This document shows positions 18,251-34,521 of a stretch of 64,000 bases of DNA, piece by piece. Made by a program: the position numbers and the translations under genes. The notes below the pieces were generated by a model. The model saw nothing but the letters and a program-made list of their open reading frames with translations. It had not been told where the DNA came from and ran no database searches. Numbering within the stretch: position 1 is the first letter of the stretch; each line of letters begins with the position of its first letter. The DNA comes from a virus, in IMG/VR virus record IMGVR_UViG_3300046171_000155, one strand, 5' to 3'.

Positions 18251-18278
18251 AGTATAACAGATACTATTTATATGTCAA
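18251..18278 (-). promoter_or_regulatory. nested sigma70 and late promoter
   Basis: TTGACA..TATACT with TATAAATA (18265-18272) inside the spacer. Confidence 0.55.
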
Positions 18279-18946
18279 GCGTATTCCCAGAATTTTCTGC
18301 GTTGTATTTTGCTATTGTCTCGCGCAAGGGACGGACCCACGTATCTCTATGTTCGATAAAGATTTGCGGTTCGTGGTTGTCAACTGAGACAATCGTCACT
18401 AACTGAGTGATTGGTTGTTTAGTACGCTCTTCCCACATGATTGCGTAGGCGGACTCTTGCATGAAGTAATTGGTGATCCAATCCTTTCGTTTGGGTTTCA
18501 TAGATGTTTTGAAATCAATGATAGAAAGACTACCATCGAACTCAGCAACGCAATCGACGCGACCAGCCACTCCCAAGTGGTTTGAGTAGAGAGGGGCTTC
18601 CTGTGCGATATACTCGACCGATACGATTATCCAAAATGGGCTTAAGATCACCAAAGCTACTAATAATGTCTGGAGTATATCCATCTTTAAAGTTCTCCTC
18701 GTTGTTGATATACTTCTCTACGATCTCGTGGACTCGCGTCCCACGCGAGGATGCGCGGTGCGAGATACGATTCGCTTCTTCATGACCTACTCTTGCTCGC
18801 CACTTTGCAATAGATTCACGGGACAGTATCGAAAGAACTGTTGTGATGGATGGAAGGTTGATGCCTTCAGGTGTGCGGTACTGTCGCCCCTTCTCAGTGG
18901 TGACAGCATTCATTTCGGTTAATTCTGTAAATACGTGTTCAAACAT
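18268..18946 (-). CDS. Cas4-like PD-(D/E)xK exonuclease (frameshifted near 18610)
   Basis: LPSITTVLS, RGTRVH in one frame; QEAPLYS...AGRVDCVAEFDG..SIIDFKTS, YFMQ..AY in the next. Confidence 0.85.
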
Positions 18947-19104
18947 TATATATCCAAGTCTTTTTGGTCAATTTCTCTTCGCTCTTTTCTCACAAGATAT
19001 GCCGCAACGATAAAACCAGTTGTAGACAAAAATCCAATGAAAGCAAAAAAGTATAGTAGATATTGTAGCATAAAAACTCTCACGTGTCAATAATAAAAAA
19101 AGAA

Positions 19105-19254
19105 TCCTCACTGGCGCGGGACCATAATTAGCACATTATATTTGAAGCCGAACCCACTATTCATTGCTAGGCATACTTACATGCGCTATTGAGAGATCGC
19201 AACTTTCGTGTCTCTGGTCTTCGTGCTAGGTCTGCAGACCACGCCGAGTGAGGA
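19105..19254 (-). ncRNA. candidate structured non-coding RNA
   Basis: Ends pair (UCCUCACU-C-GGCGUGG / CCGCGCC-AGUGAGGA); inner helices GACC/GGUC, UAGCAC/GUGCUA, GAAG/CUUC; two hairpins; followed by a U7 tract. Confidence 0.6.
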
Positions 19255-19257
19255 AAC

Positions 19258-19333
19258 TGGTGGAGCTAGAGGGAGTCGAACCCACGACCTCTTGAATGCA
19301 AATCAAGCGCTCTCCCAACTGAGCTATAGCCCC
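19258..19333 (-). tRNA. tRNA-Ala(UGC)
   Basis: GGGGCTATAGCTCAG...TTGCA...GGTTCGACTCC...CCA cloverleaf. Confidence 0.95.
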
Positions 19334-19342
19334 TATATTTCC

Positions 19343-19350
19343 TATTTATA
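19343..19350 (-). promoter_or_regulatory. T4-type late promoter for tRNA-Ala and the candidate ncRNA
   Basis: TATAAATA 9 nt upstream of tRNA-Ala. Confidence 0.7.
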
Positions 19351-19352
19351 CT

Positions 19353-20766
19353 TTAGTCGCACCCAAGATCTTGACGCGACAATTCATCGTTGTTGATAGG
19401 ACAGTTGCCACTTGGTAACGACTCTGGCACATATCGCATCAACTCTGGATCATGCAAACCGTTCTCAAGGAACGCAACAAGGTTCGCAATCTCATCTTCG
19501 GTCAAGTCGAGCGGCGTAAACCGATAGTCAAGATCTGAGATCTCTACTTGCGGATGTTGGGGGACAGCATCGACTTTGTATCGCACGACATCTTCTACAC
19601 TAGAAAACGAAGCACCGTGACCGAATACGGTAGTATCTATAAGGTTGTAAAGAGGCGGAACTTTGAATGCGAACTTCTCCATCTCATCACCAGTGAACCC
19701 ACCACGACCCTCTCTAGTCGCATCGTTGACTTCACCTACTGTATCTTCCCAGATGTCCAGATCATGGAACCCGACAGTCATAAACACTTCGTCAGCCATC
19801 GCACCGACAGGGTGACGACAAGGCAGGTCCGTTGTGACATGTGTGACAGTTGCCTTTACCAAAGAACACCTCTGCGCCTGCGACTTCAGATTCAGTCATC
19901 GCAGTTTCGTCGCCTTTCAAGTATGCTTGGAAGGGTGCTTGGTTCGCAAGAATGGTTCGTTCGTATGCAGCGATTGCTAGTGCAGTTGCCTCTAACATAT
20001 CGTCGGGTTCTGCAATACCATACGCAGCCTCATACATCTCACGATAAGTTTCGTTGGTGCGCAGAATAGAGTCATCGGTGTCGCCCATACGATGCACACC
20101 TAGACCCGCAACTGCTTGTGTCTCTAGACCAGCGAAGTTACGCAGATTTGCTTCTTTAGGAGTGCCTTCTGTGAAGTGACGATCGGGATCAATACCGACG
20201 TTTACATTACCAGCGATGACGTTACCGAACTGACCGTTCCACAACATCACTTCTTGGTATGCGGTGTTCAATACTGTAGGTGACGTAACGGGTTGTACGT
20301 CGATGTCTTCTGGATTGACACCAGCTGCAATCATGCGGTGATCGAAACCGACACCACCCTCACCGATACCCTGACGAATACCAGACTTGAATCCGTTCTG
20401 TGCGTTGTGACAAGATGCACAAGAGAAAGTATCTTCCATACCCGCGATGTTGCCGTCGGTGATACCAGTCTCATGATAGATCAACTGACCGAGCGCAACT
20501 TTCTCTGCAGTAATAGGATTGCTTGGATCTTGTGGAATGCTGTCGAAGTCATCACTCTCTGGGAGAATGTACTCTTCATACGAACCGATCGTTGATGTCG
20601 AATCAAGTAATGTGAGCAGATTGTCACGCGCCTCGACTGCAGGGTCAACTGGAGTTACGGTTGGGGGAGTTACGACTACGGGGTTGGGAGCGGATGCGTT
20701 ATCTGCACCCCCTGAACACGCACTCAGGAGTGCAGTAGACACAGCTACAGTTAGTAGTTTCTTCAT
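19353..20766 (-). CDS. di-haem cytochrome c peroxidase/MauG-family lipoprotein (frameshifted near 19810)
   Basis: Lipobox LSAC; NPIT.EKVALG, CASCH, CHTCH, AFKVPPLYNL, GHG, LT.DEI.NLVAFL. Confidence 0.85.
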
Positions 20767-28758: not shown

Positions 28759-29423
28759 TGTAGATCTTCCAATTGTGGATCATAATATGTTTGGTCGGCG
28801 ATCAAAGAACTGCTCACGTCATACTTATAGTGGACCATAGGGTCACATTTTGAAATGCCAAAGGTAAGTCCGGAGCGAACGAAAATGTCTCGCGTCGAAG
28901 CGAATATGTAACCGTTCCATCTTTCTGCTCGCCACAAGGGTCTTTCGTGATTACGGAAAGCGTGGAGTCGGTCCTCTTCAAGCGCAACTACAGACATACT
29001 TCTGTCTTTGTAGGTATCTAGTGGGTGATCACCTTTCTCGATGCAACGCAGAATCAGTTCGGAATCATTCATCGTCTGAGTCTCATATTCCCAAACTTCT
29101 GGGTCCTGAGAGATGACACCGTTATGAGCAATAGAAATTCCATTACCCTGAAATGGTTGGTTGTATCGAAGGTCTGAGGTTGAATATCGGATATGACCGA
29201 TCAACTTCAGTGAGTCGTTAAAAACGAAGTCTTTGATGCTATGGTCTTTTAGGAACTCGGTGACGGGAACTGGTTCTTTGATTGTCTTCAGACCATGCTG
29301 TGTCACATAAGTAACACCAGTGGCATGCTTACCACGGATCATGGTTTGTCGAAAAATACGATCAACTAGGTTAATATCTTCCTCGACAATATCAGTCAGA
29401 TATACACCAATTACGCCACACAT
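28752..29423 (-). CDS. class II (Ntn) glutamine amidotransferase, stand-alone
   Basis: MCGVIG (Cys2), RGKHATG, GHIRYST, NQP, AHNGVI, NDSE, RPLW and FAS. Confidence 0.88.
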   Translation of the reverse strand: MCGVIGVYLTDIVEEDINLVDRIFRQTMIRGKHATGVTYVTQHGLKTIKEPVPVTEFLKDHSIKDFVFNDSLKLIGHIRYSTSDLRYNQPFQGNGISIAHNGVISQDPEVWEYETQTMNDSELILRCIEKGDHPLDTYKDRSMSVVALEEDRLHAFRNHERPLWRAERWNGYIFASTRDIFVRSGLTFGISKCDPMVHYKYDVSSSLIADQTYYDPQLEDLQC

Positions 29424-29448
29424 AATACCCTCACTTGATCATAATAAA

Positions 29449-33261: not shown

Positions 33262-34502
33262 TAGAACTGGTCCTCTTCAGTTGATCCTGACATCGCGGCA
33301 GTTGAACTAGACCCCAATGTAGTGGTGATGGCATCGAAGTAACCGACACCCACTTCTCTCTGGTGCTTCGCACCTGTGTATCCACGTGACTCTGCGGCAA
33401 ACTCTGCTTCTTGTAACAACGAGTATGCGTACATACCTTCGTCTTTGTATCGGTTTGCGAAATCAAAGACAGAGTAGTTAGTCTGGTGGAATCCTGCAAG
33501 TGTGATAAACTGGAACTTGAATCCCATCTTACCCAACTCGCGTTGGAAGTCTTTCAGTTCTTGATCGCCTGGGATTGACTTGCGCCAGTTGAATGACGGT
33601 GAACAGTTGTATGCCAACATTGCGTCGGGTACTGCACCTTTGACTGCGTCAGCAAAACGTTTCGCATCCTTCAAGTCTGGTGTCGATGTCTCGCACCAAA
33701 CGAGGTCTGCGTATTCTGCGTATGCCTGACCGCGCACACAACCGAACTCTAGTCCTTTGCCCTCTTCGAGCATATAGAAACCTTCTTGTGTGCGACATTG
33801 AATAGATCCCGCAGTTCCCTGCGCGACTCTCTTGATGAATGGTTTGTCGATGTCTGAGATGTTGCTAGAGATTAGTTTAGCAGACTCAGCATCGGTACGA
33901 GCAATAACGACTGTATCAGTGCCAGCAACGTCACTAGCAAGGCGAGCGGCATTAAGGTTGCGTAGAGCTTGACTAGTCGGTATGAGAACCTTTCCTCCCA
34001 AGTGTCCGCACTTCTTCTCGGCAGCCACTTGGTCTTCAAAGTGAACAGCGGCAGCACCTGCCTCAATGAGGTTACGAGCAAGTTCATACGCATTTAGAAC
34101 TCCTCCGAATCCTGCCTCAGCGTCGGCAATAATAGGGGCAAATTCAAACCCGTTTCCATTTTCCAGATATTCGATCTGATCTTGTCGTCTAAACGCATTA
34201 TTGATACTGCGGACAACATTAGGGACGCTATCAACAGCATAGAGAGACTGATCTGGGTAAACCTCAGCATGAGAGTTGGCCGACGCAGCCACCTGCCATC
34301 CCGAAAGATATATCGCTTTGAGTCCTGCTTTGACGTGTTGTACTGCTTGTTGTCCATTATATGCTCCAAACGTGTTGATGTATTCGTTTTCTTCAAACAG
34401 TTGGCGTAACTTGGTCGCACCCATCTTTGCGAGGGTGTGATCAATCTGTACGGTGCCTTGAAGACGGCGAACGTCTTCGGGTGAGTAATCTCGTTTTTTC
34501 AT
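33261..34502 (-). CDS. aceA: isocitrate lyase
   Basis: YLSGWQVA, PIIADAEAGFGG, EDQ..EKKCGHLGGK, ARTD, AYNCSPSFNW and HQREVG. Confidence 0.97.
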   Translation of the reverse strand: MKKRDYSPEDVRRLQGTVQIDHTLAKMGATKLRQLFEENEYINTFGAYNGQQAVQHVKAGLKAIYLSGWQVAASANSHAEVYPDQSLYAVDSVPNVVRSINNAFRRQDQIEYLENGNGFEFAPIIADAEAGFGGVLNAYELARNLIEAGAAAVHFEDQVAAEKKCGHLGGKVLIPTSQALRNLNAARLASDVAGTDTVVIARTDAESAKLISSNISDIDKPFIKRVAQGTAGSIQCRTQEGFYMLEEGKGLEFGCVRGQAYAEYADLVWCETSTPDLKDAKRFADAVKGAVPDAMLAYNCSPSFNWRKSIPGDQELKDFQRELGKMGFKFQFITLAGFHQTNYSVFDFANRYKDEGMYAYSLLQEAEFAAESRGYTGAKHQREVGVGYFDAITTTLGSSSTAAMSGSTEEDQF

Positions 34503-34521
34503 AACAAATCCTGTAATAATA

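Follow-up and report, generated by a model that had tools for sequence, protein, structure and literature searches.

A structured non-coding RNA family accompanying tRNA-Ala(UGC) in a lineage of marine T4-like phages

On comparative sequence evidence, the 150 nt following the tRNA-Ala(UGC) gene of IMG/VR virus record IMGVR_UViG_3300046171_000155 (analysed here as a stretch of 64,000 nt, hereafter the window) are a member of a genuine, previously uncatalogued family of structured non-coding RNAs, which forms one module with this tRNA. A covariance model matches the RNA, with lengths of 150-190 nt, in more than 50 marine viral and metagenomic loci as well as in phage C48C1. The family is new to Rfam, and a search of the literature yielded no description of it. 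It constitutes a second, independent case beside the RNAs of the T4 tRNA cluster, with 38 covarying pairs, an invariant loop and a single tRNA partner, and these clear comparative signals provide precise targets for mutation and pull-down experiments.

Organization of the tRNA-Ala locus

All elements of the locus are encoded on the minus strand of the window. A T4-type late promoter motif, TATAAATA (19343..19350), is located 9 nt upstream of the tRNA-Ala gene (19258..19333), which was detected by ARAGORN and by the Rfam tRNA model (69 bits) and exhibits the anticodon UGC, a G3:U70 pair and an encoded CCA. The U-rich linker GUU (19255..19257) separates the CCA from the first paired base of a 150-nt, ORF-free structured RNA (19105..19254). 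This is followed by the 3' tail UUCUUUUUUU (19095..19104), which includes a U7 tract (19095-19101), adjoins the closing helix and resembles an intrinsic terminator. An initial annotation had placed the late promoter motif, the tRNA, the 3-nt linker, the ORF-free segment and the U7 tract exactly here, and all of them were recovered. Directly after the U-tract lies a sigma70-type promoter (TTGACA-17-TACAAT with a TG extension; 19062..19090) matching 11 of 12 consensus positions.

The same signals recur among the homologues. Nine copies of TATAAATA are present in the window, compared with a chance expectation of 2.1, all nine on the minus (gene) strand, and in 38 of 49 distinct homologous contexts the exact motif precedes tRNA-Ala by no more than 45 nt. 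Homologous linkers, counted from the CCA to the helix start CC(C/U), range from 3 to 19 nt and end in UU in nearly all cases, the commonest being GUUU, GUU and AUUU; the GUU linker of the window is likely an endonucleolytic processing site. At the 3' end, homologues read GGGGAU(U)CUU and then a U-rich tail that some subgroups show in weaker form, and a TTGACA promoter is found approximately 5-60 nt past the RNA in nearly all homologous contexts.

Fold and anatomy of the RNA

The minimum free energy (MFE) of the 150-nt RNA is -56.3 kcal/mol, compared with -40.6 +/- 4.0 kcal/mol for dinucleotide-shuffled sequences (z = -3.9), and none of 200 shuffles folded as well. The MFE fold contains the closing helix of about 15 bp (UCCUCACU/AGUGAGGA and GGCGUGG/CCGCGCC), the GACC/GGUC, UAGCAC/GUGCUA and GAAG/CUUC helices, and the GCAUG-UAAG-UAUGC hairpin, all of which had been proposed beforehand.

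In the window, the closing rod P1 is a 15-bp helix in which the 5' strand (19239..19254; UCCUCACU, one unpaired C and GGCGUGG) pairs with the 3' strand (19105..19119; CCGCGCC and AGUGAGGA), and 11 of its 15 consensus pairs show compensatory changes. It is prolonged by an inner rod made of GACC and UAGCAC (19223..19232), whose partners lie at 19120-19123 and 19129-19134, on either side of a 3'-side internal loop; in the family consensus these segments correspond to helices 2 and 3, which are 98-100% paired and have compensatory changes in 9 of 10 pairs. Across the family, the closing rod measures 19-25 bp, starts with CC(C/U)C, ends with G(A/G)GG and consists of three segments, split by a mismatch and a 3'-side internal loop of 5-7 nt. 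Beyond the rod, a conserved AAGA-type strand faces an A-rich strand, followed by P2, whose 5' strand (GAAG.CC, 19216..19222) pairs with 19144-19149 and whose consensus pairs (helix 4) all show compensatory changes (8/8).

The junction bears P4 and, optionally, a GC hairpin, P3 (UGCGC/GCGCA with a variable loop), which is absent from the window's own subgroup and from the most divergent members. P4, in which GUUGC (19199..19203) pairs with GCAAU (19163-19167), encloses the apical domain; as consensus helix 8 it is 98% paired and its three pairs covary. The conservation line of the alignment delimits the apical loop GAUCUCUCAA (19189..19198), where UCUCUC is invariant in all 32 aligned sequences and unpaired in the consensus, the flanking A's being kept in at least 90%. 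A spacer of 4-6 nt separates this loop from hairpin P5 (GCAU-loop-AUGC; 19171..19184), in which the four pairs are the same in all 34 sequences, whereas the length of the loop ranges from about 6 to 13 nt. The apical UCUCUC loop is likely to act as a recognition surface. An AGAGA..UCUCU hairpin, which had also been proposed, falls outside the family consensus, where UCUCUC is left unpaired, and this pairing could at most represent a pseudoknot. In most sequences, a possible pseudoknot can also be drawn that joins the UCUC loop to the conserved AAGA(G/U/C) immediately 5' of P2.

Covariation, strand and coding potential

Two covariance models were employed: R1, which was built from one subgroup and used to align all variants, and R2, which was rebuilt from 26 sequences. 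In this alignment, which is fitted to the model and hence leans towards the modelled structure, 92.8% of the pair cells of 34 distinct sequences are canonical, compared with 29-57% after a shift of the 3' partners by 1-3 columns. Compensatory changes on both sides were detected in 38 of 53 pairs, and none of 500 shuffles reached the observed covariation score. AU-to-GC swaps at single pairs are frequent (17 AU versus 11 GC at one pair, 20 GC versus 14 AU at another), and together with the slid controls they indicate a covariation signal too strong for an artefact. Conservation and covariation among homologues located beside tRNAs, on which the initial annotation had made its reading depend, are therefore both present. 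Alignments obtained with MAFFT and RNAalifold misaligned the 5' strand and recovered the fold only in part, and the model-based alignment was used instead.

The evidence also points to the strand of the tRNA. In the helices of the P1 rod, with the exception of the terminal pair, G.U outnumbers A.C by approximately 29 to 1, indicating selection on the RNA of this strand. Reverse-strand matches to the model score about 25 bits, compared with 95-166 bits for the forward strand (approximately 70-140 bits lower), and no conserved ORF was found across the homologues. Taken together, these data argue for an RNA transcribed from the tRNA strand, rather than for a DNA repeat or a gene. In C48C1, the annotated CDS0083 (WJE87956.1, L001 6623-6718), a 31-aa "hypothetical protein", lies wholly within the structured RNA; since it has no conserved frame in the homologues, it is probably a mis-annotation, and the assignment of part of the RNA to a protein gene in this phage can be corrected.

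Homologues and distribution

In GenBank, BLAST searches revealed a single related phage, C48C1 (OQ984149, listed under Kyanoviridae); in a comparison with 50,697 phage records, only the tRNA part was matched, together with a 40-nt core match in C48C1. The gene order in C48C1 is the same as in the window, with a di-haem peroxidase gene and tRNA-Ala, then a gap of some 190 nt, followed by a small hydrophobic ORF and a PD-(D/E)XK exonuclease. The gap aligns poorly to the window at the sequence level and its closing helix is rebuilt with other bases; the central motif is common to both. A pattern describing this core motif (GATCTCTCAA, gap, GCATGT, gap, ATGCC) retrieved 34 IMG/VR and 33 metagenome loci, and the covariance model confirmed 34 viral and 32 metagenome loci. 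Indeed, R1 scores 47-205 bits at every motif-bearing locus except for one chance match; for the window itself, the score rises from 47 bits (R1) to 95 bits (R2; E ~1e-25). More divergent members were recovered through synteny.

When the core motif was searched in 185,579 prokaryote species, each represented by one genome, only three matches were obtained, and they are attributable to chance since they showed neither a model match nor a tRNA nearby. Each of four near-complete phage genomes carries exactly one copy of the RNA; R1 also indicated a weak second copy in L006 (16.9 bits), which R2 did not recover. The region is absent from G001, the record nearest to the window. Within the collections searched, this well-supported family is confined to one lineage of uncultured marine T4-like phages. 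Rfam 15, applied at the gathering threshold to the whole window and at E <= 10 to three variants, returned only tRNA and noise.

Linkage to tRNA-Ala

At all loci that extend far enough upstream, a tRNA-Ala(UGC) precedes the RNA at a distance of 3-19 nt. Eighty loci were fetched through the neighbouring exonuclease and 60 of them were scanned for tRNAs: the RNA was present in all 14 loci with an upstream tRNA-Ala and in none of the 46 without any tRNA. No RNA copy was found anywhere in five larger contigs of RNA-less relatives, and no tRNA-Ala was found in the three of them that were fetched in full. In the exonuclease tree, RNA-bearing loci form two clades within one well-supported lineage, corresponding to at least two gains or losses. 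The strict co-occurrence, the single copy and the joint gain or loss indicate that the RNA and tRNA-Ala behave as one accessory module, and the existence of two clades with at least two gains or losses implies that this module is dispensable.

The linked tRNA-Ala genes comprise 17 distinct sequences with identities down to 62%, all of them preserving G3:U70, the UGC anticodon and the encoded CCA. A series of scattered tRNAs ends with tRNA-Ala in the window, C48C1 and G002, and no comparable trailer follows the other eight tRNAs of the window. The stretches located after tRNA-Glu (34372-34521, minus strand) and tRNA-Leu (29299-29448, minus strand) fold slightly more stably than shuffled sequences (z = -2.4 and -1.9, respectively) but appear to be coding; the remaining tRNA trailers are unremarkable.

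Proposed function and alternative explanations

The explanation that we prefer, and to which we give slightly less than an even chance, is that of a stable, trans-acting RNA whose scaffold would display the invariant loop and hairpin for recognition by a conserved partner, which is probably a protein. Endonucleolytic cutting of the RNase E type is part of tRNA 3' maturation in bacteria. Transcription from the late promoter would generate a single transcript containing tRNA-Ala and the RNA and ending at the closing helix and U-tract; RNase P would trim the 5' end of the tRNA, and an RNase E-type cut in the U-rich linker would free both tRNA-Ala and the RNA. The rod would then lock both ends of the RNA, rendering it stable; the transcript ends and the stability considered here are predictions from sequence. 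The covarying helices would constitute the scaffold, with one conserved partner reading the apical loop together with the hairpin.

A host or phage protein appears a more likely partner than an mRNA. Sites complementary to the invariant loop occur 7 times in the window compared with 7.15 expected, and no such site is conserved when the window is compared with C48C1 and a third genome, which makes a phage mRNA target unlikely. With a protein as the likelier partner, the RNA would function late in infection as a trans-acting decoy or cofactor. The initial proposal of a discrete functional RNA behind a late-promoter tRNA-Ala, placed for release by tRNA 3' processing, is strongly supported by conservation, covariation and linkage, whereas its suggestion of a 6S-type decoy is not supported (see below).

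The main rival, which we consider unlikely but far from negligible, is a purely cis-acting boundary and maturation element, that is, an enlarged terminator/early-promoter cassette of the PeSL type with no function in trans. Such an element would stop late or read-through transcription before the next early unit, and would shield or guide the 3' maturation of tRNA-Ala. PeSLs are cassettes of a terminator stem-loop plus an early promoter that mediate module shuffling in T4-like phages (PMC4122927, PMC2839356), and the locus resembles them in that a stem-loop with a T-tract directly precedes an early promoter of the sigma70 type where modules meet within a variable region (PMC4122927). Here, the G+C-rich stem and U-tract (the 15-bp helix plus U7 in the window) are present in most homologues, and the succession of closing helix, U-tract and near-consensus sigma70 promoter recurs in nearly all of them. 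A simple terminator scan of the window finds nothing, because the loop of this stem measures about 110 nt. The strict linkage to tRNA-Ala and the position exactly between a late and an early transcription unit fit a role in cis equally well, and the joint gain or loss of RNA and tRNA also speaks for it. Nevertheless, a terminator needs about 30 nt, whereas 150-190 nt are conserved here. PeSL stem-loops are short and simple, in contrast to the "loop" of the new RNA, which is a conserved domain of 110-150 nt that contains invariant motifs and five inner helices with covariation; both the invariant apical loop and the invariant hairpin are located far from the 3' end. Moreover, the U-tract is degenerate (GGGGAUUCUUAUAUGA) in some subgroups in which the core stays intact, and the lack of such a trailer at the other eight tRNAs of the window also speaks against this rival.

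A bolder proposal, which we regard as rather improbable, is that the RNA and tRNA-Ala(UGC) form a functional pair, in which the invariant UCUCUCAA loop and the GCAU/AUGC hairpin would capture a conserved host factor involved in translation or transcription, or tRNA-Ala itself, late in infection. If true, this would define a new class of phage riboregulator, and it would account for a linkage that has survived the divergence of the tRNA to 62% identity.

Less probable still is a base-pairing sRNA, in which the invariant pyrimidine loop (UCUCUCAA) would pair with purine-rich sites of host mRNAs, such as Shine-Dalgarno-like GAGAG, with the 3' stem and U-tail serving as an Hfq-type module. The single-stranded state of the loop in the consensus and the terminator-like 3' end with its U-tail are consistent with this proposal. 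However, complementary sites in the phage are at chance level and unconserved, as described above, and a conserved 150-nt scaffold with an invariant hairpin stem would be unusual for a seed-type sRNA.

We consider it very improbable that the RNA is a nut/put-type element directed to Nus factors or RNA polymerase, mimicking boxA-spacer-boxB and conferring termination resistance on late transcription or titrating NusB/NusE. The order of elements is that of lambda nut, with a pyrimidine box (UCUCUCA), a 4-6-nt spacer and a short hairpin with an A-rich loop, and in bacterial rRNA spacers, too, box elements come after a tRNA-Ala(UGC). Nevertheless, the boxA match is weak, as in our own comparison UCUCUCA agrees with GCUCUUA at 5 of 7 positions, and to our knowledge no N-like protein is known in T4-like phages. 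The lambda nut site consists of boxA (CGCUCUUA), a spacer and the boxB stem-loop (PMC2724277). Its boxA consensus (CGCUCUUA/UGCUCUUUA; PMC2724277) is accompanied by a 5-bp hairpin with a GNRA-like pentaloop, in contrast to the hairpin loops of 6-13 nt in the new RNA. In addition, the element sits at the apex of a helix, with a terminator of its own downstream, and the search of 185,579 prokaryote species yielded no core-motif match that was confirmed by the model or located beside a tRNA.

The initial annotation had compared the RNA with a 6S-type decoy of sigma70 RNA polymerase, an identity for which we see only a remote chance. 6S RNA (RF00013) is roughly similar in length and has its ends paired in a long helix; the rod-like closing helix and the asymmetric internal loop between P1 and P2 recall this arrangement, and size and late timing would suit a switch of transcription away from sigma70. 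However, none of three variants (those of the window, L013 and C48C1) gave an Rfam 6S match at E <= 10. Furthermore, 6S RNA possesses two long irregular helices around a large central bubble, whereas the consensus of the new family displays a branched top with a three-way junction, no large two-sided central bubble, and conserved bases in the apical loop rather than in a bubble.

Finally, a DNA-level element (MITE, cruciform or recombination site) is already disfavoured to the point of being barely credible: long terminal inverted repeats around a core of about 110 bp beside a tRNA gene would suit it, but the element is single-copy in each genome checked, its arms covary rather than being conserved, G.U is tolerated and A.C avoided on one strand only, and the reverse strand scores far lower.

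Comparison with known RNAs

Since the 1970s, the T4 tRNA cluster has been known to end in small stable RNAs, which are still without a function. In T4, tRNA-Arg is followed after 1 nt by rnaD and, after a further 6 nt, by rnaC. These RNAs, rnaC (species 1) and rnaD (species 2), are late RNAs whose role is unassigned (PMC3014915, PMC9697503). Like the new RNA, both directly follow the final tRNA of the phage's tRNA region on the same strand, and they are of similar size (119 and 139 nt). They are classed as late, and the new RNA lies behind the late promoter motif described above. However, the new RNA differs in its long closing rod, its junction, its invariant UCUCUCAA loop and its specific tie to tRNA-Ala, whereas rnaC has a tRNA-like T-arm and rnaD is not unusually stable. 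Neither R1 nor R2 matched T4 positions 68000-76000, which contain the tRNA region. By position, the new RNA is therefore analogous to rnaC and rnaD, but not homologous to them; it is of the same kind as the T4 tRNA-cluster RNAs, yet unrelated. The T4 rnaC sequence (L036 2909-3047) folds much more stably than expected by chance (z = -4.6), its T-arm being CCGGGUUCGAAUCCCGG, and the fold of rnaD was no better than chance (z = -0.8).

GOLLD and ROOL are phage-borne structured RNAs of 500-800 nt, often found beside tRNA genes, that constitute Rfam families with no assigned role. The new RNA shares with them its structured nature and its association with tRNA genes, but it differs in its length of only 150-190 nt and in the lack of an Rfam match.

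Several other identities were considered and rejected. As far as the Rfam 15 models can see, there was no match to 6S, YrlA, pRNA or known self-cleaving ribozymes, or to the cyanophage motifs manA, wcaG, glnA and abiF (PMC9697418-type surveys; PMC9964418). For Y RNA/YrlA, no TROVE match was obtained in four RNA-bearing genomes, while control genomes were matched, and the RNA contains no internal tRNA-like gene. ARAGORN and the Rfam tRNA clan matched only 19258-19333 and not the downstream RNA, which discards a tRNA or tmRNA. Similarly, T-box-like or AlaRS-minihelix mimicry was rejected, the rod having no conserved G.U pair and no Rfam T-box match being obtained.

Further observations at the locus

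In some lineages, the RNA is followed by a small hydrophobic ORF, which in the window encodes 41 aa from its ATG and is located outside the RNA (18946..19071, minus strand). Its homologue in C48C1 differs mainly by synonymous changes, and the ORF is missing at many RNA-bearing loci. The ATG (19069-19071) and a GAGAG ribosome-binding site lie inside the spacer of the sigma70 promoter, upstream of the -10 box, and the same arrangement of ATG and ribosome-binding site is found in C48C1, suggesting that the small ORF is translatable only from transcripts that read through the terminator of the RNA. At L002-type loci, so little sequence separates the promoter from the exonuclease ATG that the mRNA may lack a leader.

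Subgroups in which the U-tract is weak carry an additional short inverted repeat between the RNA and the TTGACA promoter, for instance GTGACTA...TAGTCAC or GTGACCAA...TTGGTCAC (L013 ~2111-2150; L006-type loci just 3' of the RNA). This repeat could be another terminator or an operator.

The genes flanking the module in the window, encoding the PD-(D/E)XK exonuclease (18268-18946, minus strand) and a di-haem cytochrome c peroxidase (19353-20766, minus strand), each consist of two overlapping ORFs in different frames, whereas in C48C1 each is a single intact CDS (225 and 473 aa, respectively). The splits are due either to frameshifts introduced by sequencing or assembly or to the presence of two pseudogenes within 2.6 kb.
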